NCBI GenBank assembly: GCA_964019425.1
Contig: OZ025782.1
Coordinates: 248,001-312,000, forward strand
DNA: 64,000 nt
From: Flectonema sp. DT1601
Taxonomy: Eukaryota
Reading direction: 5' to 3'
Positions within the stretch are counted from its first letter, which is position 1. Each line of letters begins with the position of its first letter. Shown here piece after piece: positions 1,153-34,064 of the stretch. The notes beneath the pieces are model-generated. The model did no database searches and was not told the origin of the DNA. It saw only the letters and a program-made list of their open reading frames with translations. Both the position numbers and the translations under genes were made by a program.

Positions 1153-1814
1153 TTCATTATTATATCTCCCATTCTGTCGAAAAGCAATAACTAAAGAAGA
1201 GGAGAGACTTAATTCAGACGAGGAAAGAAGCCTCGAACACGAGGAGAGGATATAATCATCTCATTGATAATAACAAGCGTTTTGAATAAGATCTTTTCTT
1301 TGGCTCCATCATCATTATGGTTAAATATTAACAATTAGTTACACCTGACCAATACCGAGTATAAGATTCATCCCCAGTTTGTCCGAAGCATTACATTGTA
1401 ATGAGGGAGTACCGAAAAAGCTTTATATAAAAGTACCTCAAAAAAATTGGGAAGCGCGCAGCCCTTTCACAGCAACAAATGAAAACAAAAGGTTCACATA
1501 TATGATGAACGGTCAGTTTATCGCTGGATCAGTATGCATTTTGCTAAGAAAGTTAGTAGGAAATAAAAATATTGTTGGGATTGTCAAACAAACGAATAAA
1601 AATAATTCGTTCAAGACATCAAACAAATAAAATAAATTAAACAAATAATTAAATAAGTTAGTATTAATGTTTATCAGTCAAAAGAAGGGGAGAGGGAGGG
1701 AAAATTCAATCGAATGCAAAAGTTCGTAGGTATTAGGAAGTTCTAAGGGACTTCAGTTAGTTAATTAGCTAGCAGTATTAGTAAGTTCTAAGGGACTTCA
1801 GTTAGTTTAGTTAG

Positions 1815-2065
1815 CAAAATACAAACTGATGACTACGAGGGGTCTGGGTAGCCCGCATCAGTAAGTACCCAATCGCGAAGATTGTACTTTCACAGCTTCG
1901 GCTGGAAGTGATCGACTTCCAGCCTCCACCTTGCCCAGAGGCTAACAGGTTGTAAACAACTAAAGAAAATAAAAGAGAAATGATCTGGGAGTGGGGGGGA
2001 CTTGGATAAATAAATCAAGGTTAACACGCAACAAATTAGACATGAATCATTATAACTGGATTCTG

Positions 2066-2096
<31 letters not shown>

Positions 2097-2875
2097 GGAA
2101 GTCCAATACATTGCGTACTGTGCATCGCTGATACAGCAAACTAGGGAGCATCGGGTTAACTCCCTAGAGCTACGAGGCAACAGCAACGTAATTAGACCCA
2201 ATCTTATTAGGATTGTTTTTTTATAGCTTCGGCTGACGGGGCATAATGAACACAGTATGCCTATTGTCAGCTTTCCACCTTGTCCGATTGTTGTCAGGAG
2301 GTGATATGAGGATAACTAAAGAGAAAAGAAAACAAATAAATGAATATATAAATTTAAAAAGAAAATAAAATAAAATATATAAAAACAAAGACTCTGGGGG
2401 CGGGGCGTTTGGATTCTGTAAGGGATAGAATTTTTCTTTATTTTATTTTTTTTGATAATGTTGTATATAACTAAAGGAGAGTTATCGAACACACACGCAA
2501 ATCGCATGCTTTAAATAAACTACCAGAGAAAGAAATGCTGTCAAGTCAAATTGACCCGGGGACCACGCACGTGGGGGGGAGGTGAAAAAAATAAAAAGTC
2601 TTCTTTCTTTCATATACATCTTTCTTTATAATACGACCATATGTGCCATATGCCCACACTCCACGAAAGAAAATAGAAAACCCCGGAACAGTACCGAGGA
2701 TCGTTCACCCCCAGTTGTCCAAAGCATTATAATTGTACTGTGGGCTTACCGAAAAGCTTTAGAAATGTACCACAAAAAACTGGGCAGCACATAGCCATAT
2801 CACTCAGCAAGAAATGAAAACCAAAAGGATCAGGTAAGATGACAGTCAGTTTAAGGTCATAACTGCGACGGACCT
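1815..2875 (-). mobile_element. Non-coding retroelement 3' end (family 1, CTAA-type tail) interrupted by a related family-2 end with (ATCT)n tail
   Basis: Family 1 is uninterrupted at ~18170-18660; the 2000-2575 insertion includes the (AGAT)n tract at 2067-2095; the two families share structured motifs; repeated at 10725-11780. Confidence 0.6.
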
Positions 2876-2876
2876 A

Positions 2877-3021
2877 GACTTCATTCTATATTGAAGTTGC
2901 TTATCGTTCTAAGATAAAAATCCATCGGAGCTCGCCAGGATAGGGCTAGCAATATTTATTTGCTTTTGTTCAATTTGAATTTTAATTTTTGACGTCTGGT
3001 CGTTTCACTATTACAGTCGAG
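2877..3021 (-). mobile_element. 5'-truncated fragment of the Penelope-like element 3' end (also 11782-11927, 17578-17648)
   Basis: Matches 8757-8894 (ORF stop region and 3' UTR). Confidence 0.8.
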
Positions 3022-4350
3022 CCTTGATCTTAAATAAGTTAGTATTAATAATTATCAGTCAATTAAAAAAAAAAAAAGGCAAAATTTCGTAGGACAACAA
3101 ACAAGTTGGTTTCGGACTAAGATTAAAAACAATCTTTCTTCGGACCATTCCCCTTACCCAGCCCTCTTTAGTGAAGAAAGCAAGGGGGACACTGCTCCTA
3201 AATCAGTTAGTTAGTATATATATACTTTGGAGTCACGTAAGTATCAACCTCTTGCAGGCAAACACAATGGCTAAAAGTAATTCTATACTAAAACTGTACC
3301 ACTGGCCAGAAGATACGCAAGCTAACCACATGCACGAAGCAGGCAGTATAAGTGACGGATGATAAAGAGAGGAGGAAAAGTGGCAGAGAAATTTTGCTAT
3401 TCGGTCCGATTCTTTACTCTTTTTTTCGCTGCGCAAAGAGTATTCATTCAGTTATTTTTTTTTTTTTGCCTTTCTTTTTGCCGCTTCTGCCAAACCCATC
3501 CTTGGATTTTCATTTTTATCTTTCAACTACACCTCACTGTGTACTTAAACCGGTAAAATAAAGCATCCAACGAAAGCAAAAAAAAAATCGGAAAATAAAA
3601 TTATTGAACCCTCCGAATAGCAAAATCCAGCGCAAAATAAATAAGTAAAAAAGAATCCTTGTTATATACGAGATACTATTGTCAATTATATCTATTTTTA
3701 TATATATTTGTACCTACAAACCCATTGTTCGGTAGAAACAGAATTGCGGCAGCGTAAACTAACCTATTTCCTTTATTAGGATTTTGTACTGGTTGCGCAC
3801 AAACAAAATAAAAGTGTGAGTGAGTAAGTAAAAAAGTGATGTTTGCCGATTCCTTCTTTTTCATCTTTTTTCGAAGCAGAGTCTTGTGTGATTCCCCAGC
3901 TTATTTCAAACAAGGAAAGAAGAACAAGAAATCTCTAGCACGAACTGAGACCAAAGGATCGTTGACATGTTTTCACACCGTGGATCGGTGGACTGATTAG
4001 ATTTCTTTACCCGCACTAGTGTACCAGCTGGTGTATTTGCATTAAATAACAGAAACAGATTCAATCCATAAGAGAAGAGGAATAACTTGATACTAATATT
4101 AAATGGAAAGCCAACTTGAAACCGACCAAAACGAGAATAGGGTTCGGCCAAACCTGGTTGAAATATAAGAAAATCAACAATTGGTATCATGTAAAAAATC
4201 CCATATGTGCTGCCGAAGATGGGGATTCGGGGCCACGAACTACAAGTTGAGCGCCCCATGCCCTGTAGCCCGTCACAGCTTGAAATAGAGGGGGAGAGAT
4301 TGATTAAGAGCAGCCAGTGTTTGAATAATATATATTTTAGTGAGTTTCTT

Positions 4351-5046
4351 TTAAACAGAATTCAACGTATCTAATGAATCAGGTTGCTGTTTAATTATCA
4401 ATTCTTCGATCTGTTCTTTTTCATCTTCGCAATTGATGTCTTCGAGTTCGTGTGTTTCTCTGAACTTCAGAGTTGGTATTCTAATTACGTATGATCGACA
4501 ACCATTCCAACCCTGACATGTTAGTATAAGAGATAACGCAATTACTGATATTGTGTATTTAGTTGTTTTCTCAAAAGGATTTAACTGCTCTGGAAACCAT
4601 ATTCTTGTCGTAAAGTAGAACGGCATTAGACACAAACCAACAACAAGTAGACCTTTCCAAAATATTAGCGGAAATGATCGAATTGATTTCATACGTGCAT
4701 TTGCGATGTTCAATTTTATGTCAGTTTTTGGAAGATCAGCTACTTCTCTATGATTAAAATATATCCGAAAACCCACTACTAGAATATTAGCAACAACAGA
4801 CATACCAAACGCAAATGTCACTGAACAACCCAACCATATGAGCAGTACAGTAACCAGTACCACAACAATTTCAGCAGACACTCCGCTGATAAGAAGATTT
4901 CTGCGATGAGCTATAAATACTTCCTTCTTTCTCTTTTCACACGTAATTATTCTTCCAGAACCGAATCTTCCATTTGGATAGTAGATTGTGCTTCCGTCTT
5001 CCTGATCAGCGAAGACACTTTCTGTGAATCTGTCCAAGAATCTCAT
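4351..5046 (-). CDS. Uncharacterised 231-aa membrane protein (about 4 TM helices), copy 1
   Basis: Intact intronless ORF; ATG at 5046 matches the copy 3 start MRFLDRFTES; hydrophobic segments. Confidence 0.75.
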   Translation of the reverse strand: MRFLDRFTESVFADQEDGSTIYYPNGRFGSGRIITCEKRKKEVFIAHRRNLLISGVSAEIVVVLVTVLLIWLGCSVTFAFGMSVVANILVVGFRIYFNHREVADLPKTDIKLNIANARMKSIRSFPLIFWKGLLVVGLCLMPFYFTTRIWFPEQLNPFEKTTKYTISVIALSLILTCQGWNGCRSYVIRIPTLKFRETHELEDINCEDEKEQIEELIIKQQPDSLDTLNSV

Positions 5047-5194
5047 TTTATATTTTTTTTTCGTGTATACCACACTAATTTAAAAAAAGAAACCTTAACT
5101 CAAACAGTTTCTTTGCAAAGCAGTAGTGCCGGAAGCATCATCTCCAGACTTCTTAGCAAAATCCAAAAAAAGAAAAAAGATATGTGTATTAATT

Positions 5195-7592: not shown

Positions 7593-8567
7593 AAATAAAT
7601 AAGGGAAAACCTACAAATCTACTCAAAGGTTGCTCCACAAGACCGTGACTGTAGTATCCGATCAGTCAAACTACCCTGCCACTGATTTTCACTTTAACAG
7701 CGAGCTATTAGTATATATTATTATGTCAGCTGTTTAAAAGAGAGGGAAGGGCTAAGCATGCGATGTCTTCAACTTCAGAGTTGGTTCTTCTATTTTGTAT
7801 GATCGACAACCATTCCAACCTTGGTGTATTAATGTGATGGAGAATACGATTATTGATATTGCTAATGTTGTTGTTTTTTGAACTCCACGCAGTTGATCTG
7901 GAAACCAAATTCATTATTATATCTCCCATTCTGTCGAAAAGCAATAATTAAAGAAGAGGAGAGACTTAATTCAGACGAGGAAAGAAGCCTCGAACACGAG
8001 GAGAGGATATAATCATTTCATTGATAATAACAAGCGTTTTGAATAAGATCTTTTCTTTGGCTCCATCATCATTATGGTTAAATATTAACAATTAGTTACA
8101 CCTGACCAATACCGAGTATAAGATTCATCCCCAGTTTGTCCGAAGCATTACATTGTAATGAGGGAGTACCGAAAAAGCTTTATATAAAAGTACCTCAAAA
8201 AAATTGGGAAGCGCGCAGCCCTTTCACAGCAACAAATGAAAACAAAAGGTTCACACATATGATGAACGGTCAGTTTATCGCTGGATCAGTATGCATTTTG
8301 CTAAGAAAGTTAGTAGGAAATAAAAATATTGTTGGGATTGTCAAACAAACGAATAAAAATAATTCGTTCAAGACATCATTTATTTTTTTTTTTTTTTTTT
8401 ATCAAACAAATAAAATAAATTAAACAAATAATTTAATAAGTTAGTATTAATGTTTATCAGTCAAAAGAAGGGGAGAGGGCGGGAAAATTCAATCGAACGC
8501 AAAAGTTCGTAAGACAACAAACAAATAATGGTTGGTTTCGGGCTAAAATTAAAAAAAATCTTAAGTT

Positions 8568-8763
8568 AGTATCATTAATTTTAGAACAAAAAAGTGAGAA
8601 TAAGAAAAGTAGAGATCAATAAAAAAAAAAAAAAAAAAAAAAGGGGGTATTCATTTCTGCAGTTTCCTAACATCAAAGGGTAATAGAATATGTAGTTTCA
8701 GGCCTTAATCTTATACTACTTGTCCCTTTTTAGGCCTTCATCAGTAAGTTCTAAGGGACTTCA
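8568..8763 (-). repeat. Penelope pseudo-LTR-like direct repeat (partner 10381-10562)
   Basis: ~190-bp direct repeats flank the RT ORF; both contain a hammerhead core. Confidence 0.75.
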
Positions 8764-8769
8764 TTCTAT
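8683..8769 (-). ncRNA. Hammerhead ribozyme, rearranged topology
   Basis: CUUA-CUGAUGA-AGGCCU...GUAG-UA-UAAG...AGGCCU-GAAA-CUAC on the minus strand, about 100 nt downstream of the RT stop. Confidence 0.7.
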
Positions 8770-8848
8770 GTTGAAGTTGCTATCGTTCAAAGATAAAAAT
8801 CCATCGGAGCTCGCCAGGATAGGGCTAGCAATGTTTATTTGCTTTTGC

Positions 8849-10285
8849 TCAATTTGAATTTTTGACGTCTGGTCGTTTCACTATTACAGTCGAGTTAATG
8901 GATGAGTCGTCATCCAATTTGCGTTTTATTTTATCTTCGCATATCATCAAAGGTCCTATATTCGCAGGTGTCATTGTAACATCCATATCAGTCTGAGCTT
9001 TTAATGGTATCATATGGAAACTATACTCTGTAGTTCGGTACATCTTGTCAAAATGATCGAAAGGGAGTCTTAAATCTTTTGTGCCTTTAAGAATGTCTCG
9101 GATGATCATGGACTCAAATGAGACTAGCGCAACAATAAAGTGAGTCATCCTTGTTTTCGCTTTATGTAGAATAAGTGCTGCGGCTGCTTCAGGATAATCG
9201 AAATCTGCTGGGTTAACGAAGTACTCGATTCTCCTGTTGAATTTAGTCATGCAAGCCATGTTAAGTACTTGTAGCGAGAACCAACCATCTGGTGATGGTT
9301 TATGCTCTGAGTTGTTCGGTTCTACTTTAAGAGATTCTTCATAAAATCGCTGTTGGTAGTTTTGCAGAAAACTGAAGTTAATTCTATCGATATATAAATG
9401 ATCTGCAATGAAGTTGAGCGATGCCCATCCGCATTCTCCACCGAGAAGACCTTCTCCTGATGTTTGATGTAGGGATGGTGGAAATCGTTTATCCAAGGAA
9501 TGGCTTGTAGAGCCTGTGTGGTTAATTGTATCCTTTTCGATGCTTAATGGGACTTTGTGACTAAACTTCTCAAAAGTAAGGTTGATACGTCGACGCATTG
9601 CAGCTGCTGTATTACCATCATCAATGTGAGAGCTAATGAAGCGGAGGCATGCTGCTCTGATATTGTCAGATTTATAGCCCCGGTTGAGTAATCTATAAGT
9701 TACCGCTTCAAGTTCCTGTAAAAAGTCTGCCTGGTTGTTGCAGATTTTTAGAGCTCGTAAGATCATGGTGGTAAAGATACCTGAACCCATTGATTCTTGA
9801 GCTGCGGAATGCTGATGGGTAAACCTTGTTGGCGTAATATGCCAACCCCTGGCTTTGTCATTAACACTTAAACGAATCCATCGTTTATTTGTGTTAGTGA
9901 TCTCTATTCGGATACGAATTCCTATATAAGAGACGTCATCGATATTATTCGAAGTATCAGTGTAATCCATTGAGTATAGACTTGCTGGTGGAGGGTCACA
10001 ACTCCAGGTGAGGAAGTCGTCGATGTATCTACACGAGTGGTCATGTTGCCGAGCTAAGTCTAGATTTTTTGCTTCAATTAAAGAATCGATATATGCGGAT
10101 TCAACTCTATAGCAGTAGAGATTTGCTATATCGCTACTGGCGTTGCCACCCATTGGAATGCCTATTGTTTGTCTCCAAATATAACCTCTTAATGCAATAA
10201 AGGAGGAGTCAATACAGAATTCAAGTAATTTTTGACATTCTGCAAGCGCAAGAGAAGGGAATCGTGTAGGGTCACTCGATTCAAG
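8849..10285 (-). CDS. 5'-truncated Penelope-like reverse transcriptase with C-terminal Josephin-like protease domain
   Basis: Frame is open upstream of the listed ATG to 10285: LLEFCIDSSFIALRGYIWRQTIGIPMGGNASSDIANLY...RYIDD, thumb RFTHQHS..GIF..ILRALKIC; then C241/H338/D353 and DGWFSLQVL. Confidence 0.85.
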   Translation of the reverse strand, partial: LESSDPTRFPSLALAECQKLLEFCIDSSFIALRGYIWRQTIGIPMGGNASSDIANLYCYRVESAYIDSLIEAKNLDLARQHDHSCRYIDDFLTWSCDPPPASLYSMDYTDTSNNIDDVSYIGIRIRIEITNTNKRWIRLSVNDKARGWHITPTRFTHQHSAAQESMGSGIFTTMILRALKICNNQADFLQELEAVTYRLLNRGYKSDNIRAACLRFISSHIDDGNTAAAMRRRINLTFEKFSHKVPLSIEKDTINHTGSTSHSLDKRFPPSLHQTSGEGLLGGECGWASLNFIADHLYIDRINFSFLQNYQQRFYEESLKVEPNNSEHKPSPDGWFSLQVLNMACMTKFNRRIEYFVNPADFDYPEAAAALILHKAKTRMTHFIVALVSFESMIIRDILKGTKDLRLPFDHFDKMYRTTEYSFHMIPLKAQTDMDVTMTPANIGPLMICEDKIKRKLDDDSSINSTVIVKRPDVKNSN

Positions 10286-10490
10286 TTAGTTTATTATTAT
10301 AAAATATTTACTTTGAAGTCATGTAAGTATCGACCTCTTGCAGGCAAACTCAATGGCTAAAAGTAATTCTATTGATACATAGCATCATTAATTTTAGAAC
10401 AGAAAAAGTGAGAATAAGAAAATTAGAGATTAGTAAAAAGAAAAGTATTCATTTCTGCAGTTTCCTAATATCAAAAGGGTAATAGAATAT

Positions 10491-10560
10491 GTAGTTTCAG
10501 GTCTTAATCTCATACTACTTGTCCCTTTTTAGGCCTCCATCAGTAAGTTCTAAGGGACTT
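10491..10560 (-). ncRNA. Degenerate second copy of the hammerhead
   Basis: CUGAUGG instead of CUGAUGA; one stem II mismatch; UGAG wobble in stem I. Confidence 0.55.
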
Positions 10561-10975
10561 CAGTTAGTTAGTATTAATGGTTATCAGTCATAAGAAGGGG
10601 AGAGGGAGGGAAAATTCAATCGAATGCAAAAGTTCGTAGGTATTAGGAAGTTCTAAGGGACTTCAGTTAGTTAATTAGCTAGCAGTATTAGTAAGTTCTA
10701 AGGGACTTCAGTTAGTTTAGTTAGCAAAATACAAACTGATGACTACGAGGGGTCTGGGTAGCCCGCATCAGTAAGTACCCAATCGCGAAGATTGTACTTT
10801 CACAGCTTCGGCTGGAAGTGATCGACTTCCAGCCTCCACCTTGCCCAGAGGCTAACAGGTTGTAAACAACTAAAGAAAATAAAAGAGAAATGATCTGGGA
10901 GTGGGGGGGACTTGGATAAATAAATCAAGGTTAACACGCAACAAATTAGACATGAATCATTATAACTGGATTCTG

Positions 10976-11010
<35 letters not shown>

Positions 11011-13289
11011 GGAAGTCCAATACATTGCGTACTGTGCATCGCTGATACAGCAAACTAGGGAGCATCGGGTTAACTCCCTAGAGCTACGAGGCAACAGCAA
11101 CGTAATTAGACCCAATCTTATTAGGATTGTTTTTTTATAGCTTCGGCTGACGGGGCATAATGAACACAGTATGCCTATTGTCAGCTTTCCACCTTGTCCG
11201 ATTGTTGTCAGGAGGTGATATGAGGATAACTAAAGAGAAAAGAAAACAAATAAATGAATATATAAATTTAAAAAGAAAATAAAATAAAATATATAAAAAC
11301 AAAGACGCTGGGGGCGGGGCGTTTGGATTCTGTAAGGGATAGAATTTTTCTTTATTTTATTTTTTTTGATAATGTTGTATATAACTAAAGGAGAGTTATC
11401 GAACACACACGCAAATCGCATGCTTTAAATAAACTACCAGAGAAAGAAATGCTGTCAAGTCAAATTGACCCGGGGACCACGCACGTGGGGGGGAGGTGAA
11501 AAAAATAAAAAGTCTTCCTTCTTTCATATACATCTTTCTTTATAATACGACCATATGCCCACACTCCACGAAAGAAAATAGAAAACCCCGGAACAGTACC
11601 GAGGATCGTTCACCCCCAGTTGTCCAAAGCATTATAATTGTACTGTGGGCTTACCGAAAAGCTTTAGAAATGTACCACAAAAAACTGGGCAGCACATAGC
11701 CATATCACTCAGCAAGAAATGAAAACCAAAAGGATCAGGTAAGATGACAGTCAGTTTAAGGTCATAACTGCGACGGACCTAGACTTCATTCTATATTGAA
11801 GTTGCTTATCGTTCTAAGATAAAAATCCATCGGAGCTCGCCAGGATAGGGCTAGCAATATTTATTTGCTTTTGTTCAATTTGAATTTTAATTTTTGACGT
11901 CTGGTCGTTTCACTATTACAGTCGAGCCTTGATCTTAAATAAGTTAGTATTAATAATTATCAGTCAATTAAAAAAAAAAAAAGGCAAAATTTCGTAGGAC
12001 AACAAACAAGTTGGTTTCGGACTAAGATTAAAAACAATCTTTCTTCGGACCATTCCCCTTACCCAGCCCTCTTTAGTGAAGAAAGCAAGGGGGACACTGC
12101 TCCTAAATCAGTTAGTTAGTATATATATACTTTGGAGTCACGTAAGTATCAACCTCTTGCAGGCAAACACAATGGCTAAAAGTAATTCTATACTAAAACT
12201 GTACCACTGGCCAGAAGATACGCAAGCTAACCACATGCACGAAGCAGGCAGTATAAGTGACGGATGATAAAGAGAGGAGGAAAAGTGGCAGAGAAATTTT
12301 GCTATTCGGTCCGATTCTTTACTCTTTTTTTCGCTGCGCAAAGAGTATTCATTCAGTTATTTTTTTTTTTGCCTTTCTTTTTGCCGCTTCTGCCAAACCC
12401 ATCCTTGGATTTTCATTTTTATCTTTCAACTACACCTCACTGTGTACTTAAACCGGTAAAATAAAGCATCCAACGAAAGCAAAAAAAAAATCGGAAAATA
12501 AAATTATTGAACCCTCCGAATAGCAAAATCCAGCGCAAAATAAATAAGTAAAAAAGAATCCGTGTTATATACGAGATACTATTGTCAATTATATCTATTT
12601 TTATATATATTTGTACCTACAAACCCATTGTTCGGTAGAAACAGAATTGCGGCAGCGTAAACTAACCTATTTCCTTTATTAGGATTTTGTACTGGTTGCG
12701 CACAAACAAAATAAAAGTGTGAGTGTAAGTAAAAAAGTGATGTTTGCCGATTCCTTCTTTTTCATCTTTTTTCGAAGCAGAGTCTTGTGTGATTCCCCAG
12801 CTTATTTCAAACAAGGAAAGAAGAACAAGAAATCTCTAGCACGAACTGAGACCAAAGGATCGTTGACATGTTTTCACACCGTGGATCGGTGGACTGATTA
12901 GATTTCTTTACCCCGCACTAGTGTACCAGCCGGTGTATTTGCATTAAATAACAGAAACAGATTCAATCCATAAGAGAAGAGGAATAACTTGATACTAATA
13001 TTAAATGGAAAGCCAACTTGAAACCGACCAAAACGAGAATAGGGTTCGGCCAAACCTGGTTGCAATATAAGAAAATCAACAATTGGTATCATGTAAAAAA
13101 TCCCATATGTGTTGTCGAAGATGGGGATTCGGGGCCACGAACTACAAGTTGAGCGCCCCATGCCTATCTACGCACAGACGAGTTTCCTACACGCCGCACT
13201 AACCAAGATGAGGTATGAGAGCGCCAAAAACAAGTATACATGATCAGCTGTCTAAGGCTTGACATGAATAGCTGTGGAGTGGCGAAACC

Positions 13290-13555: not shown

Positions 13556-14251
13556 TTAAACAGAATTCAACGTATCTAATGAATCAGGTTGCTGTTTAAT
13601 TATCAATTCTTCGATCTGTTCTTTTTCATCTTCGCAATTGATGTATTCAAGTTCGTGTGTTTCTCTGAACTTCAGAGTTGGTATTCTAATTCCGTATGAT
13701 CGACAACCGTTCCAACCCTGACATGTTAGTATAAGAGATAACGCAATTACTGATATTGTGTATTTAGTTGTTTTCTCAAAAGGATTTAACTGCTCTGGAA
13801 ACCATATTCTTGTCGTAAAGTAGAACGGCATTAGACACAAACCAACAACAAGTAAACCTTTCCAAAATATTAGCGGAAATGATCGAACTGATTTCATACG
13901 TGCATTTGCGATGTTCAATTTTATGTCAGTTTTTGGAAGATCAGCTACTTCTCTATGATTAAAATATATCTGAAAACCCACTACCAGAATATTAGCAACA
14001 ACAGACATACCAAACGCAAATGTCACTGAACAACCCAACCATATGAGCAGTACAGTAACCAGTACTACAACAATTTCAGCAGACACTCCGCTGATAAGAA
14101 GATTTCTGCGATGAGCTATAAATACTTCCTTCTTTCTCTTTTCACACGTAATTATTCTTCCAGAACCGAATCTTCCATTTGGATAGTAGATTGTGCTTCC
14201 GTCTTCCTGATCAGCGAAGACACTTTCTGTGAATCTGTCCAAGAATCTCAT
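13556..14251 (-). CDS. Uncharacterised membrane protein, copy 2
   Basis: Differs from copy 1 at only about 4 residues. Confidence 0.75.
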   Translation of the reverse strand: MRFLDRFTESVFADQEDGSTIYYPNGRFGSGRIITCEKRKKEVFIAHRRNLLISGVSAEIVVVLVTVLLIWLGCSVTFAFGMSVVANILVVGFQIYFNHREVADLPKTDIKLNIANARMKSVRSFPLIFWKGLLVVGLCLMPFYFTTRIWFPEQLNPFEKTTKYTISVIALSLILTCQGWNGCRSYGIRIPTLKFRETHELEYINCEDEKEQIEELIIKQQPDSLDTLNSV

Positions 14252-14872
14252 TTTATATTTTTTTTTCGTGTATACCACACTAATTTAAAAAAAAGAAACC
14301 TTAACTCAAACAGTTTCTTTGCAAAGCAGTAGTGCCGGAAGCATCATCTCCAGGCTTCTTAGCAAAATCCAAAAAAAGAAAAAAGATATGTGTCTTAATT
14401 GAGGGGATGCTTAAGTTGACATAATTCAACTCGAAAACAGTTTAATTATCGTCGAGTGGGGATTCCGGCGCCGAGCGCGAAAAGCGCGAGCACTCACGGG
14501 CTCAATAATTTTACGTTTGAAAGAAGCGTGAAATTAGGGCTCATAATCCCACTGAGGTCATAATCACACTCTTACTGATGCCCATTATCCACATCCATTA
14601 AATTATCCTCCCGGAAAACTTAAAATCACCCCCAACATAATTGCCATTATGTCAAAATCACCCGGATTATTACAGGTCAATAACTACATCGCCACAGCCA
14701 TTTTAAACCAAAAACAGAAAATCATAATTTTACTGCTGTATTAGATTTGGTCTTAACTTCACACTTTTGTGATAATTTCGATTTGCCAGCCATCGGCCTT
14801 GTGTACGGAATGTAATTACCGGTGATGAAATGTGCACAGAAATAATTCGTTTATGGCATTAAATAAATAAAT

Positions 14873-16791: not shown

Positions 16792-19254
16792 AAATAAATA
16801 AGGGAAAACCTACAAATCCACTCAAAGGTTCTGGTGGAAGCTCCACAAGACCGTGACTGTAGTATCCGATCAGTCAAACTACCCTGCCACTGATTTTCAC
16901 TTTAACAGCGAGCTATTAGTATATATTATTATGTCAGCTGTTTAAAAGAGAGGGAAGGGCTAAGCATGCGATGTCTTCAACTTCAGAGTTGGTTCTTCTA
17001 TTTTGTATGATCGACAACCATTCCAACCTTGGTGTATTAATGTGATGGAGAATACGATTATTGATATTGCGAATGTTGTTGTTTTTTGAACTCCACGCAG
17101 TTGATCTGGAAACCAAATTCATTATTATATCTCCCATTCTGTCGAAAAGCAATAATTAAAGAAGAGGAGAGACTTAATTCAGACGAGGAAAGAAGCCTCG
17201 AACACGAGAAGAGGATATAATCATCTCATTGATAATAACAGGCGTTTTGAATAAGATCTTTTCTTTGGCTCCATCATCATTATGGTTAAATATTAACAAT
17301 TAGTTACACCTGACCAATACCGAGTATAAGATTCATCCCCAGTTTGTCCGAAGTATTATAATTGTAATGAGGGAGTACCGAAAAAGCTTTATAAAAGTAC
17401 CTCAACATTTTGGGAAGCGCACAGCCCTTTCACAGCAACAAATGAAAACAAAAGGTTCACATATATGATGAACGGTCAGTTTATCGCTGGATCAGTATGC
17501 ATTTTGCTAAGAAAGTTAGTAGGAAATAAAAATATTGTTGGGATTGTCAAACAAACGAATAAAAATAATTCGTTCAGGATGTTTATTTGCTGTTGTTCAA
17601 TTTGAATTTTAATTTTTGACGTCTGGTCGTTTCACTATTACAGTCGAGCCTTGATCTTAAATAAGTTAGTATTAATAATTATCAGTCAATCAAAAAAAAA
17701 AAGGCAAAATTTCGTAGGACAACAAACAAGTTGGTTTCGGACTAAGATTAAAAACAATCTTTCTTCGGACCATTCCCCTTACCCAGCCCTCTTTAGTGAA
17801 GAAAGCAAGGGGGACACTGCTCCTAAATCAGTTAGTTAGTATATATATACTTTGGAGTCACGTAAGTATCAACCTCTTGCAGGCAAACACAATGGCTAAA
17901 AGTAATTCTATACTAAAACTGTATTGACCAGAAGATACGCAAGCTAACCACACGCACGAAGCAGGCAGTAAAAGTATCATTAATTTTAGAACAGAAAAGT
18001 GAGAATAAAAAGTAGAGACTAGTAAAATAAAAGTATTCATTTCTGCAGTTTCCTAACATCACAGGGTAATATTAATTTTAGAAGGCAGTATAGTTAGTTA
18101 GTATTAATGTTTATCAGTCAAAAGAAGGGGAGAGGGAGGGAAAATTCAATCGAATGCAACTAACATGTTAGTTTGTTATCAAAATACAAGCTGATGACTA
18201 GGGGTTTGGGTACCCAGCATCAGTAAGGACCCAATCGCGAAGATCGTACTTTCACAGCTTCGGCTGGAAGTGATCGACTTCCGGCTCCCACCTTGCCCAG
18301 AGGCTAACAGGTTGTAAACAACTAAAGAAAATAAAAGAGAAATGATCTGGGAGTGGGGGGAGGTGAAAAAAATAAAAAGTCTTCTTTCTTTCATATACAT
18401 GTTTCTTTATAATACGACCACATGTTCCATATGCCCACACTCCACGAAAGAAAATAGAAAACCCCGGAACAGTACCGAGGATCGTTCACCCCCAGTTGTC
18501 CAAAGCATTATAATTGTACTGTGGGCTTACCGAAAGCTTTAGAAACGTACCACAAAAGATTTGGGCAGCACATAGCCATATCACTCAGCAAGAAATGAAA
18601 ACCAAAAAGATCAGGTAAGATGACAGTCAGTTTAAGGTCATAACTGCGACGGATCTAAATGTATAAGTGACGGATGATAAAGAGAGGAGAGAAATTTTGC
18701 TATTCGGTCCGATTCTTTACTCTTTTTTCGCTACGCAAAGAGTATTCATTCAGTTATTTCTTTTTGCCTTTCTTTTTGCCGCTTCTGCCAAACCCATCCT
18801 TGGATTTTCATTTTTATCTTTCAACTACACCTCACTGTGTACTTAAACCGGTAAAATAAAACATCCAACGAAAGCAAAAAAAAAATCGGAAAATAAAATT
18901 ATTGGACCCTCCGAATAGCAAAATCCAGCGCAAAATAAATAAGTAAAAAAGAATCCTTGTTATATACGAGATACTATTGTCAATTACATCTATTTTTACT
19001 ACAAACTAATCTATTCCTTTATTAGGATTGTGTGTGGTTGCGCACAAACAAAATAAAAGTGAGAGTGATTAAGTAAAAAAGTGATGTTTGCCGATTCTTT
19101 TTTTTTTCATCTTTTTTCGAAGCAGAGACTTGTGTGATTCCCCAGCTTATTTCAAACAAGGAAAGAAATCTCTATCTCGAACTGAGACCAAAGGATCGTT
19201 GACAAAAAAAAAAAAAAAAAAAAAACATGTTAACGATCATATTTTTTTTTCGAG

Positions 19255-19640: not shown

Positions 19641-20336
19641 TTAAACAGAATTCAACGTATCTAATGAATCAGGTTGCTGTTTAATTATCAATTCTTCGAT
19701 CTGTTCTTTTTCATCTTCGCAATTGATGTCTTCGAGTTCGTGTGTTTCTCTGAACTTCAGAGTTGGTTCTTCTATTTTGTATGATCGACAACCATTCCAA
19801 CCTTGGTGTATTAATGTGATGGAGAATACGATTATTGATATTGCGAATGTTGTTGTTTTTTGAACTCCACGCAGTTGATCTGGAAACCAAACTCTAATCG
19901 TAAAGTACAACAGTATCACATACAAACCAACAACAAGTAAACCTTTCCAAAATATTAGTGGAAAAGATCGTACTGACCTCGCTCGTGCATTTGCGACATT
20001 CAATTTTATATTTGTTTTTGGAAGATCAGCTACCTCTCTTCGATTAAAATATATTTGAAAATAAAATATCGGAATACAAGCAATAAATGCCATCCCATGC
20101 GCAAATTCCACAGAGCAACCCAACAGCATCAGCAGTAAGGGACCAACTCCTGTAACTACTCCAATACACACTCCGCTGATAACAAGATTTCTGCGATGAG
20201 CTATAAATACTTCCTTCTTTCTCTTTTCACACGTAATTATTCTTCCAGAACCGAATGTTCCATTTGGATAGTGGATTGTGCTTCCGTCTTCCTGATCAGC
20301 GAAGAAACTTTCTGTGAATCTATCCAAGAATCTCAT
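19641..20336 (-). CDS. Uncharacterised membrane protein, copy 3 (divergent)
   Basis: Intact ORF; ends nearly identical to copies 1 and 2, TM segments diverged. Confidence 0.8.
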   Translation of the reverse strand: MRFLDRFTESFFADQEDGSTIHYPNGTFGSGRIITCEKRKKEVFIAHRRNLVISGVCIGVVTGVGPLLLMLLGCSVEFAHGMAFIACIPIFYFQIYFNRREVADLPKTNIKLNVANARARSVRSFPLIFWKGLLVVGLYVILLYFTIRVWFPDQLRGVQKTTTFAISIIVFSITLIHQGWNGCRSYKIEEPTLKFRETHELEDINCEDEKEQIEELIIKQQPDSLDTLNSV

Positions 20337-20878
20337 TTTATTTTATTTTTTTCGTGTATACCACACTAATTTAAAAACAAAATTATTTCAAAAAAAGAAA
20401 CCTTAACTCAAACAGTTTCTTTGCAAAGCAGTAGTGCCGGAAGCATCATCTCCAGGCTTCTTAGCAAAATCCAAAAAAACAAAAAGATAAAAAAATAAAT
20501 AAGGGAAAAACCTACAAATCTACTCAAAGATTTTGGTGGAAGCTCCACAAGACCGTGACTGTGGTATCCTTTTCTCCAAACTTTAGGTTGGACTTGTAGG
20601 ATTGCCCATAAAATAATAGTTATAACAATTACTCACACACTTATCTATATTAATTTAATAAATGCAACACACAGTAATAAAATTAAAAGAAAATAAAGTA
20701 AAGTAAGTTGACTTTTTGAAATTTTTTCTGGGTTGGAAAAAAAAAAAAAAATAAAAAAAAATAAAATAACAATTTAATACAAGGCAACAAAGAAGAATAA
20801 TAATAAAAACAATTGCGAAGCTAATCTCTGCGCCGGTACCTTCGCTTTCTCGGAATAGCAAGGCTGCAGAGTAGCAAA

Positions 20879-27297: not shown

Positions 27298-27777
27298 TTA
27301 GACCTTGTAAGCCTTGAGCGGGTCGAAGAATTCTGGACGAAGGTCAACGATGCTCTTCTGCTTCTTGATGATGCAAGCGGTTCTTGGCTGGTTGGCAGGA
27401 ACTCTCTTCACTCTCTGCTTCTTCTCCTTCTGAAGACCGGCGTTGGTGGCGATTCTTCTCTTCAAGTCATCCTGGCACTTCGACTTTCTAACGTGCTCAA
27501 CTCTGACATTGATTCTCTTTCTGAAGACCTTTCCGTTGTGCTTCTTGTTTACAATAACTCCGACAGCACGTGGGGTGACGTTCCATACGATTCCAGTCTT
27601 ACCCTGGTACACCTTGTGCGGAAGCGACTTCTGGATAGCTGGGTCGGCACAGATGTTGACGTAGTCTCCTGCTTTGTACTGGGTCAAGTATCTGGTCTGG
27701 TTTGGCATACCCTTAGTGCCAAAGGTCTTGGAGAACAAGTTCCTTGTTCCCGCACGGTAACCATAGGAGTGAACCAT
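27298..27777 (-). CDS. RPL21: 60S ribosomal protein L21 (eL21), copy 1
   Basis: GYRAGTR..F, PHKVYQGKTG, KRINVRVEHVRKS. Confidence 0.95.
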   Translation of the reverse strand: MVHSYGYRAGTRNLFSKTFGTKGMPNQTRYLTQYKAGDYVNICADPAIQKSLPHKVYQGKTGIVWNVTPRAVGVIVNKKHNGKVFRKRINVRVEHVRKSKCQDDLKRRIATNAGLQKEKKQRVKRVPANQPRTACIIKKQKSIVDLRPEFFDPLKAYKV

Positions 27778-27923
27778 TTTGACGATTTACAGCCTGGAAG
27801 GAAAAATAATTAATATCAGGGGAAGGGGACTACTCAATGAGAACACTCTTTACTACTTGATTGTTAACTTCAACACCATGACCATTATTTTCACTTTTTT
27901 TTGCGAAATACTTAACACACAAA

Positions 27924-28403
27924 TTAGACCTTGTAAGCCTTGAGCGGGTCGAAGAATTCTGGACGAAGGTCAACGATGCTCTTCTGCTTCTTGATGATGC
28001 AAGCGGTTCTTGGCTGGTTGGCAGGAACTCTCTTCACTCTCTGCTTCTTCTCCTTCTGAAGACCGGCGTTGGTGGCGATTCTTCTCTTCAAGTCATCCTG
28101 GCACTTCGACTTTCTAACGTGCTCAACTCTGACATTGATTCTCTTTCTGAAGACCTTTCCGTTGTGCTTCTTGTTTACAATAACTCCGACAGCACGTGGG
28201 GTGACGTTCCATACGATTCCAGTCTTACCCTGGTACACCTTGTGCGGAAGCGACTTCTGGATAGCTGGGTCGGCACAGATGTTGACGTAGTCTCCTGCTT
28301 TGTACTGGGTCAAGTATCTGGTCTGGTTTGGCATACCCTTAGTGCCAAAGGTCTTGGAGAACAAGTTCCTTGTTCCCGCACGGTAACCATAGGAGTGCAC
28401 CAT
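27924..28403 (-). CDS. RPL21: 60S ribosomal protein L21, copy 2
   Basis: Identical protein. Confidence 0.95.
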   Translation of the reverse strand: MVHSYGYRAGTRNLFSKTFGTKGMPNQTRYLTQYKAGDYVNICADPAIQKSLPHKVYQGKTGIVWNVTPRAVGVIVNKKHNGKVFRKRINVRVEHVRKSKCQDDLKRRIATNAGLQKEKKQRVKRVPANQPRTACIIKKQKSIVDLRPEFFDPLKAYKV

Positions 28404-28711
28404 TTTGTGATGAAGTAACTGTGGGGGAATTTTTTTTTTTTCATTCTCAGAAACAATGCATGCCCGTCACTCAGACTTCTTCTTCAACACCTGACTTGAC
28501 TATTCTTTTTTTTTTTTTTTTTTTTTTTTTGAACTCACTTGGTACATATTTTTTTTTGCTTTTCATTTTTAATTTCCTCCCTAATACTTTCAACTAGTTT
28601 TGAGTAAGAGCAACAGAGCTGCCTACTATAAAACTAATTTTATCACAAAAGAAATGCAAAGCAATAGACGTCCAGCCCCAAGTCGGAGCCAAGTGTCGCA
28701 CAAAGGCGAAA

Positions 28712-29191
28712 TTAGACCTTGTAAGCCTTGAGCGGGTCGAAGAATTCTGGGCGAAGGTCAACGATGCTCTTCTGCTTCTTGATGATGCAAGCGGTTCTTG
28801 GCTGGTTGGCAGGAACTCTCTTCACTCTCTGCTTCTTCTCCTTCTGAAGACCGGCGTTGGTGGCGATTCTTCTCTTCAAGTCATCCTGGCACTTCGACTT
28901 TCTAACGTGCTCAACTCTGACATTGATTCTCTTTCTGAAGACCTTTCCGTTGTGCTTCTTGTTTACAATAACTCCGACAGCACGTGGGGTGACGTTCCAT
29001 ACGATTCCAGTCTTACCCTGGTACACCTTGTGCGGAAGCGACTTCTGGATAGCTGGGTCGGCACAGATGTTGACGTAGTCTCCTGCTTTGTACTGGGTCA
29101 AGTATCTGGTCTGGTTTGGCATACCCTTAGTGCCAAAGGTCTTGGAGAACAAGTTCCTTGTTCCCGCACGGTAACCATAGGAGTGCACCAT
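28712..29191 (-). CDS. RPL21: 60S ribosomal protein L21, copy 3
   Basis: Identical protein. Confidence 0.95.
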   Translation of the reverse strand: MVHSYGYRAGTRNLFSKTFGTKGMPNQTRYLTQYKAGDYVNICADPAIQKSLPHKVYQGKTGIVWNVTPRAVGVIVNKKHNGKVFRKRINVRVEHVRKSKCQDDLKRRIATNAGLQKEKKQRVKRVPANQPRTACIIKKQKSIVDLRPEFFDPLKAYKV

Positions 29192-29715
29192 TTTGTGATG
29201 AGGGAGTAACTGAGATAAAGAAATACAATTAAATCCACCTGTCAGCTGAATGAAAACAGCTGAGTACCGGATAATATGACCGGCGTTAGTAGGATTCGTT
29301 GCTTTCCTACTACGCTACGATAACAAAACTGATAGGATAGTTACAAAGGCAAGATCAAGAAAAGCTAAAGCCACTTGATGACCTTTTGTTACTACCGAAG
29401 ACCATCTCTTATCACTTGGAATTATTATTTAGTCAAGTTCCATAACAGAACTGAGAGAGGGAATCACAAGGATAATTAAGTGTTTCTTACAACGTTAAGT
29501 CTTCAGGTCAGGTTAACTACAAAGACCCTCAAAGAACAACAAGAAACAAATTAAAATAAACTGAAAAGAGGGAAGGGGGGAGTAAAAACGAATATACAAG
29601 TCTGAAAAATAACAACAAACAAAAAAAAAAGAAAATAATAATAATAATAAACCACTACTACCATAAGAAAGTTACGTGTACGGATTGTTATGAAAAAAAA
29701 ACAGAAAGGGATTTT

Positions 29716-31212: not shown

Positions 31213-31677
31213 CCTGTTAAAGAAATATGTCTTTGTAAGAAAACAGTAACAACTTTTAGGTATTAATACAAAGCAAATATAAAAGTACTTAAAAAACAAA
31301 AAAAAAACAAAAAGGAAAATATATTATAGTTTATTAACCTGGTAAGAAAACAAAAGGGGAAAAAATAATTAATATTTCTTTAGTATAAGCATATCAACAT
31401 CTGCGCCTTGTATTTTGCCAATGCAATAAATAGAGTGCGGCTTTCACATCATTTAATTAAGGGGGTGAAGGGACGATAAACTTAACTGCGAGGAAATATT
31501 TACAAAAAAAATAAAAAAAAAATAAAAGAAAAGTTAAGGACGGTCCGGTAATGCGACCACTCACTATATAAACTTTTCTCTTATTAATTGACAGCAATTG
31601 AACATAAGATAAGCTCTAGTAAGCCTCTGTTATGGTTCTCAGTATGTGATAACTTCAAGTAGTCAAGACAAGTGATA

Positions 31678-34064
31678 TCACTCAGTAGCAGCAGGAGGTT
31701 CCTCAGCTGGCTTCTCTTCTTCTTTTGGAGTTTCTTCAGCTGCTGGTGCTTCTGCAGGAGGTTCCTCAGTTGGAGGGGTTTCCGCAGGAGTTTCTTCTTT
31801 GACTTCTTCTTCCTGCTTCGTCTCTTCCTTGGGTTCTTCCGCAGGTGGTTTTTCAGGTTCCGCAGCTGGTGTTTCCGCAGCTTCTGCTGCGGGTGTTTCT
31901 TCCGCTTTCTTCTCTTCTTCTTCAGCAGGCTTTTCCTCGGAAGGTGGGGTTTCCTCAGGTTTCTTGTCTTCGCTGGTTTCCTCAGCTGGTGCTTCCGGTT
32001 GTGCCTCTTCAGCGGGTGCTTCCTCAGCCGGTTTTTCCTCTTCTGGTGGGTTTGCGGCCGACCCTTCGGTAGGCGCTTCCTCGGCTTCGACCTTTTCCTC
32101 GGTCTCTGGGGGAGCTTCGTCCTTCTTTTCTTCCTCTGCTGGTGGTGTGGGTTCGCCGTCCTCAGCAGGTTTTGCGCCGTCTTCTTCGGAAGGTTTTTCT
32201 CCCTCTGGAGCTTCTGCTGGTTTCTCTGCAACTTCTTCTCCTGCTGGTGCTGCCTCGCCTTCTTCACCACCACCTTCACCTTCTTGTTTAGGGGCATCGG
32301 GTGACTGTTGTGAATGTTATAAAATATAAACTTTTTTATTATTATTAAGGCTTTCCAATCACCTAAAAGGGATTGCTCTACTACGTAAGATCTGTACAAA
32401 ACCATACCTGAGGTTCGTCTGTGTAACTTTCTCCAGTGGCATTTAAATCACCTTCAGGCTTTGGTTCCGCAGGTGGTGATGCAGGTTCAGCTACTTTCTC
32501 TGGTTCTGGGTCTTTGCACATTGACTTGTCTTCAGCCATCGCTGTAACATCTTCCGCAGTCAGGATTGTGTTGGATATTTTGAACCCAGCAATCTATTTA
32601 ATTATTATTTTTTTTTTCTTTTCTCTTTTATCACGATGACTTGGAAAAACAAAACACACAAACCTTTCCTAGAAATCCAGAATTAACACACTCCTCTTTG
32701 TATGAAATATTTCCAATAGTTGCAGCAGATTCTGGAGAGAGTGCGATGTCTTCTGTGAAGGTTGTTTTTTGAGATTCTGAACCATTAAGATATAAAGTAC
32801 CTTCCTTTGTGTCAGCTGAGTATGTTATAGCGACGTGAGCCCAAGTAGATTCAGTGATTTGAGAATCAGATGATGAAATCTGTTCAGCTCCGTTAAATGA
32901 GAATATAACATTCTGACTGCGGACTGACAGGTATAAGTATCCGTTTTCCTTTCCTGTTTCTCCGCAGCCAAAAATTCCGAAATCGTCATTGTCACGTTCC
33001 TCGTAGTTAGCTCCTTCAGCAAGCGACAACCAAACTGATATCGAAAATGACTCCATGAGACTTAAGCTTTCTGCTGTTCCAACATTCACAGCTTCTATCT
33101 CACCCAGAGCAATAGCCTTCTCAGAGAAGTCTTGTAGTGTTGGAGGTCCCTTTGGTTCTGGTGGAGGTGGTTCTTCTTCTTTTATTGGTTCTTCTTTTTC
33201 TTCTTCCTTTTCTTTTTCAACTTCCTTCTTTGGCGCTTCCACAGCTTCCTTTTCCTCTTTCTCTCTTCTCGCTCTTTCTTCAGATATTCTAGTTTCGTAT
33301 CCAGGGAGTACTTCGTGAAACTTTGCTTCGAACTTAACGTCGCCTACCCAGTCTTGGAGTCCTTTTGCGGTTACCATTGGCATAGAGCCTTTTTCAACAT
33401 TTAACCCAGACATGAGAACCTTGCTTTCTTCGTCGTTGAGAGATGGTGCTGTAGGTGGGAATAGACACCACACATTAATAGCTTTGCAAAACTTCTGCCA
33501 AGGAACCTCTGATTCGAGGGCACCAAACTGATCAGACCAGAGTTCGAGGAGGTCAGGGTTTGTGATGAATTCAGAGGCTGGTTTCTTCTCCTTAATAAGT
33601 TGTTTTATAGTCCTTTTGATGTAAGGAGTATTGACTCCTTCGATGCTGTTAATGTATTGACAATCTTTATAAAACAGAAATAATGGTTTTGCTTTTCCTT
33701 GTTGCTCCTGAAAACGTTCCCTCCAAGCATCTGGTAGAATGTCACGCTGTAACTCTGCTGGACGCTTAGCACTTCGAGGTGACAGTGGAGGTTCAGTAGA
33801 GGTTCGTGACTTTACATCAGTAAGAACCTGAGAGGCATTTACTTGACAAAATTTTAAACAAACTGCCTGATCATCAACTTCTTGTATAGATATATCCTTA
33901 AAGGTACTCTTCAGGACATTACACGCTCCCCAAGTACTACAATAAACATCAAGTACCGTTACACACGCTCTACCAGTTGTGTCTTTCTCATAACTTGACA
34001 GCTGCTCCATCAGCTCCGTCAAGCTGTTAACTGGAATAGTGATATCAGACTTACTTTGCGCCAT
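31678..34064 (-). CDS. Thioredoxin-like (NME8/dynein light chain type) + LamG/concanavalin-like domain + E/P/A/K-rich tail; introns 32594-32663 and 32305-32407
   Basis: VLDVYCSTWGAC, PLFLFYK..IEGVNTP; SFSISVW...WAHVAITY..GTLYLNG; three exons join in frame. Confidence 0.75.

Follow-up and report, generated by a model that had tools for sequence, protein, structure and literature searches.

Josephin domains on Penelope-like retroelements have been described before, by Craig et al. (2021; PMC8557442), at the C-terminus of Chlamys-1_cBra, Chlamys-4_cBra and Chlamys-6_cBra of Chara braunii. In that paper these elements are multi-copy and often 5'-truncated, with a single long open reading frame (ORF) that encodes an N-terminal GIY-YIG nuclease without the CCHH motif, a CxC motif, the reverse transcriptase (RT) and then Josephin. 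We discuss here an ORF at 8849-10285 on the minus strand of a 64,000-nucleotide stretch of DNA from Flectonema sp. DT1601 (assembly GCA_964019425.1, contig OZ025782.1, positions 248,001 to 312,000), the whole of which we call the window. This ORF is probably a recent, 5'-truncated copy of a Naiad/Chlamys-type Penelope-like element, the ORF of which ends in a Josephin-like domain, likely a deubiquitinase. A fusion of this kind is thus already in print, and ours is a new example and not a new kind; an earlier reading made from the letters of the window alone (the sequence-only reading), which did not know a Josephin-like domain from Penelope-like elements, had overlooked the Chara elements.

There are differences from the Chara elements, as far as the available descriptions go. 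The host there is a streptophyte alga, whereas here it is a protist with a euglenozoan-like gene layout. The Chara ORFs are of about 1800 aa and have a second Cys/His-rich motif after Josephin, whereas the 50-aa tail of the element discussed here has none, and the domain here is missed by the Pfam Josephin profile. What appears to be new is the euglenozoan-like host, a Josephin-like subfamily that the Pfam profile misses, and the alternation of Josephin and USP domains among related elements, for which no precedent was found in the accessible parts of the published literature searched.

Josephin-like cysteine proteases are also known from Dualen long interspersed nuclear elements (LINEs) (Kojima and Fujiwara 2005, as cited in PMC8557442), and the accessible part of a 2026 preprint (PMC13405545) gives an N-terminal Josephin deubiquitinase on ORF2p of Dualen/RandI elements of Haematococcus. 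These too are retroelement-encoded Josephin-type domains, but the RT is of another class and the domain is N-terminal, in contrast to the C-terminal position here. The deubiquitinase-type proteases carried by several classes of retroelement are so far known from sequence annotations only.

The ORF at 8849-10285 (protein P0001) runs without interruption from stop to stop over 478 codons and ends in a TGA-type stop at 8849-8851. Given base composition, the probability of 478 open codons arising by chance is 4e-15, and the longest ORF over 50 shuffles of the window had 202 codons. Residues 1-238 (9572-10285) are the remnant of an RT, recognised by RT homologues; it retains the last part of the A-to-B spacer, followed by motif B (GIPMGG, aa 42-47, 10145-10162), motif C (RYIDDF, aa 86-91, 10013-10030), a DKA motif (NDKARGW, aa 142-148, 9842-9862) and the thumb. 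RT motifs 1, 2 and A are missing from this copy, the upstream part not being in the window. After the thumb-like stretch come ECGWASLN, DGWFSLQVLNMA, THFIVA and IIRDIL in that order, followed by a C-terminal tail of 50 residues (8852-9001) that is poorly conserved, with 42% identity between sister families. The sequence-only reading had reported the uninterrupted frame with RT motifs, the four strings and the lack of a GIY-YIG domain after the thumb; all were found again in the ORF call and in a Pfam scan of the window ORF, which at E up to 10 gave no GIY-YIG and nothing above threshold.

A word-indexed search with the window ORF gave 24 relatives, the nearest being P0002 (99% identity, in a cluster of 59), P0003 (66%, in a cluster of 24) and P0005 (53%, a transcriptome ORF). 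Two full-length members, P0056 of 1350 aa and P0050 of 1279 aa, were recovered from the listing of the 90%-identity cluster of 59. The window ORF aligns without gaps to residues 873-1350 of P0056 with 3 mismatches in 478 (99.4% identity), and matches residues 802-1279 of P0050, also at 99.4%. The N-terminal half of P0056 has GVIYAL...YVGQT at 237-256, CxC (C-N-C, then NGH) at 560 and GxKF (GQKF) at 596. The RT has KLHK (motif 1) at 743, FDF (motif A) at 839, GIPMG at 914, YIDD at 959 and DKA at 1015, with 74 residues between FDF and GIPMG in the RT3(A)-RT4(B) spacer, which an insertion-in-fingers domain lengthens in Naiad/Chlamys elements, and the ECGW of the protease domain is at 1156. The intact element therefore encodes one protein of about 1350 aa, with a basic N-terminus, a GIY-YIG-like nuclease, CxC, GxKF, the RT with DKA and thumb, the Josephin-like domain and a short tail. 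In this alignment the window copy is the last 478 codons; it has lost the first 872, and with them RT motifs 1, 2 and A as well as the nuclease; truncation at the 5' end, with loss of an N-terminal nuclease, had been guessed from the window alone. By tblastn P0056 matches the window only with aa 873-1350 (10285-8852) and in two 3' fragments of 14 codons, and no element homology was found upstream of 10285 at E up to 1. Judged from these comparisons, the window copy is a dead, young, 5'-truncated member of a multi-copy Penelope-like element.

RT and protease domain lie in one unbroken frame in the window ORF, P0056, P0050, P0060, P0003, P0044 and P0079. The fusion recurs in three or more families of elements, with clusters of 59, 24 and 35 members, and in one transcriptome-derived relative. 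The third family is that of P0044 (cluster of 35), which was added by profile search. Identity between sister families is 64% in the domain, compared with 67% in the nuclease, 71-79% in the RT core, 50% in the N-terminal region and 42% in the tail. As a separate observation, P0044 and P0079, from the same assembly, have a spacer of about 190 aa with several Cys residues between thumb and protease domain, and a long array of the heptapeptide QDPKEVI after the latter.

With regard to classification, PMC8557442 gives as diagnostic for Naiad and Chlamys an N-terminal GIY-YIG, CxC, GxKF/Y, and a DKG motif altered to DKA in Naiad or DK+x in Chlamys; the CCHH zinc-finger motif of the endonuclease is present in Naiad and lacking in Chlamys. 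Motifs CxC and GxKF are present in P0056, outside the part kept by the window copy, which itself has the DKG-derived DKA. By its motifs the element is of the Naiad/Chlamys type, that is Penelope-like with an N-terminal endonuclease, because the combination of a GIY-YIG-like N-terminus, CxC, GxKF, KLHK and DKA is described only there. Of the Naiad, Chlamys and Hydra-like groups that the sequence-only reading had in mind the first two fit, whereas Hydra elements have the nuclease at the C-terminus according to the same paper. No hammerhead ribozyme was detected, with no Rfam match at gathering score in the window and none at E up to 1 in 8000-12600; most Naiad/Chlamys elements likewise have no canonical hammerhead. 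Frequent 5' truncation and pseudo-long terminal repeats (pseudo-LTRs) made by partial tandem insertion are further traits of such elements. In the window, besides the copy that has lost 65% of its length, there are three 3' fragments that are very short, and the direct repeats on either side of the ORF may be pseudo-LTRs.

As to the nuclease, Pfam GIY-YIG scores only 12.8 bits on residues 237-286 of P0056, below the cut-off of 22.6, and 17 bits on its sister P0060 (61% identical). P0056 from residue 237 aligns with P0039 of Diplonema papillatum (33% over 883 aa, E 7e-140), and the P0039 stretch that matches the GIY-YIG-like region of P0056 passes the Pfam GIY-YIG cut-off at 23.8 bits. A KR-rich block, CxC and GxKF/Y are all seen in P0039, P0041, P0042 and P0043. 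The GIY-YIG-like stretch of P0056 and P0039 has, judged by eye, too few Cys residues for the CCHH motif, and this scarcity points to the Chlamys type.

An RT tree was built from 27 rows, all of them database hits; P0001 (the window ORF), P0004, P0006, P0026 and P0038 were left out, as were proteins without the G-x-P-M/Q-G motif or with fewer than 250 residues around it. A clade of 12 of the 27 rows, with support of 100 in the Shimodaira-Hasegawa-like approximate likelihood ratio test (SH-aLRT), mixes elements bearing Josephin-like, Pfam-level Josephin and USP domains, its inner forks being poorly supported. One could suppose that the RT comes from another class of retroelement and that the likeness is due to generic RT motifs, given that local Pfam assigns no family to the window ORF and that a PDB profile search with the RT gave no telomerase match. 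We regard this as most improbable, since the full-length copies hold the whole set of features described only for Naiad/Chlamys, and since GIPMGG is also the motif B in the Chlamys-7_cRei and Naiad-Bfor rows of the supplement of PMC8557442. The profile search itself, with a mixed RT profile against PDB sequences, gave USP12/46 (via the USP-bearing rows), one RT chain at E 0.01 and no telomerase, and is uninformative on RT class.

We now turn to the domain after the thumb, a Josephin-like cysteine-protease domain of about 160 residues (aa 268-428, 9002-9484) recognised by AlphaFold, Foldseek, VIA-align, hhalign and conservation. The candidate catalytic triad is Cys285 (9431-9433), His382 (9140-9142) and Asp397 (9095-9097), with spacings of 97 and 15. 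The sequence-only reading had these residues, both spacings and the approximate range (9000-9475) right, although its numbering (C241, H338, D353) was lower by 44. In ataxin-3 the triad is C14/H119/N134, and JOSD proteins have Asp in the last position; the match in spacing was made to these residue numbers. In a 10-row alignment of the domain Cys33, His130 and Asp145 (= 285, 382 and 397) are each kept in 9 of the rows, as the sequence-only reading would have it, the exception being P0030, with Ser for Cys, Gln for His and the Asp stretch absent. Residues G27, E32, G34, W35, A36, N39, G82 and F84 are invariant. An exhaustive HMMER search with aa 253-430 against 1.84 billion representatives, at E up to 0.001, gave 13 proteins, among them seven short ORFs and P0035. 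The domain is found on short stand-alone ORFs in P0028, P0032-34 and P0037. P0035, of 1748 aa, has Exo_endo_phos and RVT_1, as in LINEs of the apurinic/apyrimidinic endonuclease (APE) type, and carries the same Josephin-like family at its N-terminus.

An AlphaFold2 model of the domain from a 12-row alignment has a predicted local distance difference test score (pLDDT) of 82.3 and a predicted template modelling score (pTM) of 0.82. Foldseek gave 7 matches in PDB at E up to 0.001, and ranks 1-5 are all Josephin domains, namely chains of 3o65 (E 5.8e-5 to 1.3e-4, template modelling (TM) score 0.55-0.57; 3o65_A 5.8e-5 and 0.56), 1yzb and 2dos; rank 6 is Alr0975 and rank 7 the bacterial Josephin-like PcJOS. 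VIA-align, which is independent of Foldseek and was run on 48,161 representative PDB chains, has human Josephin-2 on top (6pgv_A, Z 12.7, root mean square deviation (rmsd) 2.6, 128 of 152 residues aligned) and ataxin-3-like second (3o65_A, Z 12.4, rmsd 2.8, 142 of 181 aligned), followed by the bacterial PcJOS and BpJOS at Z 9.4 and a C39 peptidase at 9.1. The expectation of a papain-like or Josephin fold is thus upheld by the predicted model, for which the cellular Josephin deubiquitinases (ataxin-3, ataxin-3-like, JOSD1/2; PF02099) are the best structural match. They have the same order and spacing of Cys...His-15-Asp, and the DGWFS/GFFS and HW motifs align. However identity in the structural alignments is only 10-16%, there is no Pfam match, and they are cellular enzymes and not part of a retroelement polyprotein; the activity of the domain here is a prediction.

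There is also a connection at the level of sequence profiles. P0008 and P0009, which are distant but in the same RT clade, have RT-fused domains that score 25.8 and 20.9 bits against Pfam Josephin, for which the cut-off is 26. By hhalign the 10-row family profile aligns with these domains at a probability of 87.6% and E 3.5e-6 over 135 columns, in which the Cys and His of the two sides coincide and Asp397 is opposite a Glu; a smaller 4-row profile gave only E 0.11. Against PDB sequences at E up to 10 the sole match of the family profile is ataxin-3-like, in register at DGWFS/GFFS and HW, the candidate catalytic His falling on the latter.

Several results weigh against calling the domain Josephin-like. 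The match to ataxin-3-like has an E of 0.21 and is not significant. A Pfam scan of the window ORF with E up to 10 gave no Josephin match, and one of 10 further members of the family with E up to 1 gave none either; BLASTP of the domain against P0008 and phmmer of the domain against PDB sequences gave nothing, and phmmer of P0002 against PDB sequences gave nothing useful. The model is also matched, at Z 8-9, by papain-like proteases of other kinds, C39 among them, and the look-alikes in the ESM Atlas are clusters of Peptidase_C39 (0.94) and IpaJ protease (0.91), which are papain-like and not Josephin. We nonetheless use the label Josephin-like, because the predicted fold and the candidate triad fit while the Pfam profile does not, and on present sequences the domain appears to be a new subfamily that Pfam misses.

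The same results bear on what the domain does, for which either deubiquitination or self-processing had been put forward as inference in the sequence-only reading. A papain-like protease could serve for self-processing, for example by releasing nuclease and RT from the tail, or have some other non-ubiquitin substrate. The fold is common to many processing proteases of clan CA, of which C39 peptidases and staphopain reach Z 8.7-9.1 and are in the Foldseek list too, and both the ESM Atlas look-alikes and the lack of a Pfam Josephin match on the ORF would be as expected. However the eukaryotic Josephins, both of them, lead all other fold matches by 3 Z units with nearly the whole domain covered, hhalign ties the family to the Pfam-level Josephin domains of related elements, and no conserved cleavage motif of the Gly-Gly type was seen ahead of the domain in the family alignment. 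The relatives also have USPs at the same place, and activity directed at ubiquitin is the property that USPs and Josephins have in common. We therefore think self-processing or another non-ubiquitin substrate unlikely, while giving it some weight.

The elements with USP deserve description in this context. Within the RT clade of 12, C-terminal USP/UCH domains were found in P0041 (27.3 bits) and P0042 (76.9 bits), and P0040 has a motif like the USP Cys box at its C-terminus; USP domains are also present in P0013 and P0022, which are outside that clade. These relatives (P0041, P0042, P0040 of Diplonema papillatum, P0013 and P0022) resemble the window element in having GIY-YIG, CxC, GxKF, RT and, after the thumb, a ubiquitin protease, but the protease is of an unrelated family (USP, PF00443) and the RT is only 27-40% identical to that of the window element. 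Because two unrelated families of ubiquitin protease fill the same slot, deubiquitination is favoured over generic proteolysis, and by this analogy we lean, somewhat beyond an even balance, towards deubiquitination as the activity of the domain.

If so, the protease domain of intact copies would act on the protein or ribonucleoprotein (RNP) of the element itself, or on host factors, and take off ubiquitin or some modifier like it, so that degradation or restriction that depends on ubiquitin might be averted. The window copy would be unable to move alone, and would be the product of reverse transcription that stopped short at the target, a usual event in such elements. It may be co-transcribed with its neighbours in a co-directional gene array, because it has the same orientation as all neighbouring genes. 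In an RNA library of a marine metatranscriptome (run X2) there is a 709-nt contig over 8655-9357 with 39 differences and 8 gaps, but it is only about 94% identical, could be DNA carry-over, and indicates presence in an RNA library, which is no proof of transcription. The availability of near-identical full-length copies, of a compact and confidently modelled domain, and of USP-bearing elements for comparison makes self-protection by ubiquitin removal a testable proposition.

The frame of the window copy is intact although the copy cannot transpose, and it is oriented like all neighbouring host ORFs, which could also suggest that the copy or its domain is catalytically idle or has been domesticated by the host, as a ubiquitin-binding or scaffold module or a gene of a polycistron, with no role in retrotransposition. 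The substitutions for Cys and His in P0030 and the short stand-alone ORFs with the domain would be in keeping with this. However identity of 99.4% to full-length elements suits a young insertion better than a gene domesticated long ago, 9 of 10 rows keep the triad, the domain is conserved like the nuclease between element families, and there are further short 3' fragments of the element nearby. Idleness or domestication is in our judgement very unlikely, and a truncated copy of an element with a presumably working protease remains the preferred explanation.

In the one RT clade the one C-terminal slot has a Josephin-like, a Pfam-level Josephin or a USP domain, and the Josephin-like family is also on an APE-type LINE. 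A broader suggestion, which we make tentatively and would not put at an even chance, is that ubiquitin-protease modules are a recurrent and exchangeable accessory of LINEs and of Penelope-like elements with N-terminal endonuclease in protists, captured repeatedly against ubiquitin-dependent destruction of the RNP or of a stalled translation product.

The window is filled by long ORFs without introns, 18 or more in number, and the minus strand carries every one of them. Host genes on that strand include those for threonine synthase, PhyH, three tandem RPL21e, SRP54, a methyltransferase, leucine-rich repeat (LRR) proteins, two PLD paralogues, a MYND protein and a USP. From 21000 to 64000 every ORF of at least 280 aa is on the minus strand and apparently intron-free, a co-directional and polycistron-like arrangement as in Euglenozoa. 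Among named relatives, those nearest to the element are Diplonema papillatum gene models, and the genome of that species is described in PMC10161547 as having co-directional gene clusters. From the gene layout and these relatives of the element we infer a euglenozoan-like host. The finding would extend Penelope-like elements with N-terminal endonuclease to a euglenozoan-like lineage: the accessible text of PMC12278014 names just four retroelement clades, all different from this one, in trypanosomatids and Bodo, the accessible text of PMC8557442 has no mention of Euglen-, diplonem- or kinetoplast- terms, and that of the Diplonema genome paper (PMC10161547) mentions neither PLE nor GIY-YIG.

The surroundings of the ORF are complex. 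Its 3' untranslated stretch (8757-8848, minus strand) is common to the three very short 3'-terminal fragments of the element in the window: 8757-8894 is 92% identical to 11782-11926 and 2877-3021, and 8831-8894 is 89% identical to 17579-17648. The fragment at 11782-11926 (minus strand) is 5'-truncated, with the last 14 codons and the 3' untranslated region, and 2877-3021 is its twin; the shorter one at 17579-17648 is visible at DNA level only, in addition to the two found by tblastn. The ORF lies between direct repeats of about 190 bp on the minus strand, the downstream copy at 8567-8763 being 86% identical to the upstream copy at 10380-10562, and these could be a pseudo-LTR or a pre-existing spacer repeat. 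A 69-bp module at 10304-10372 (minus strand) adjoins the truncated 5' end of the ORF, and recurs at 12123-12191 and 3218-3286 with 93% identity. A 73-bp stretch at 8439-8511 (minus strand) is duplicated at 10566-10638 with 94.5% identity, flanking a segment of 2054 bp (8512-10565), and may represent a target-site duplication or a recombination joint. This ORF-bearing segment is within one unit of a three-unit tandem array and is missing from the sister unit 1243-3697. A clean scheme of pseudo-LTR plus target-site duplication for the flanks was considered and is not upheld, as the order of modules varies between the three array units.

Related sequence was found in only two sequencing runs. Those contigs that come from X1 (share 0.39) are short, with identities of 90-100%. 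Contigs of the other, X2, join 8539 to 10556 and 8674 to 10717, bypassing the ORF-bearing segment, and therefore related sequence without the insert exists elsewhere.

Some further observations may be recorded. In the array spacers 1243-3697, 8000-12600 and 17210-18995, short repeat modules are interspersed like a mosaic with pieces of the Penelope-like element, and at 10640-10720 there are tandem units of about 45 nt (CTAACTGAAGTCCCTTAGAACTTAC...), the core of which also starts both of the 190-bp direct repeats. An ORF of 233-242 aa with hydrophobic stretches and no Pfam family is present in three tandem copies on the minus strand (4351-5079, 13556-14284 and 19641-20342). The three tandem L21e genes (27298-29314, minus strand) are near-identical, and opposite each of them the plus strand has a long antisense ORF that is probably meaningless. 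The low-complexity region 31584-32447 lacks stops in several frames of either strand, one of which is a Glu/Pro/Ala-rich frame of 212 aa, and is probably one repetitive acidic protein. Among the Diplonema papillatum gene models P0038, a 'kinesin-like protein 3' of 2811 aa, has one GIY-YIG domain and two RT cores and looks like a host gene model fused with nested or tandem Penelope-like elements, and P0040, a 'STIP1-like' model, similarly joins tetratricopeptide (TPR) repeats to an RT and a USP-like start.

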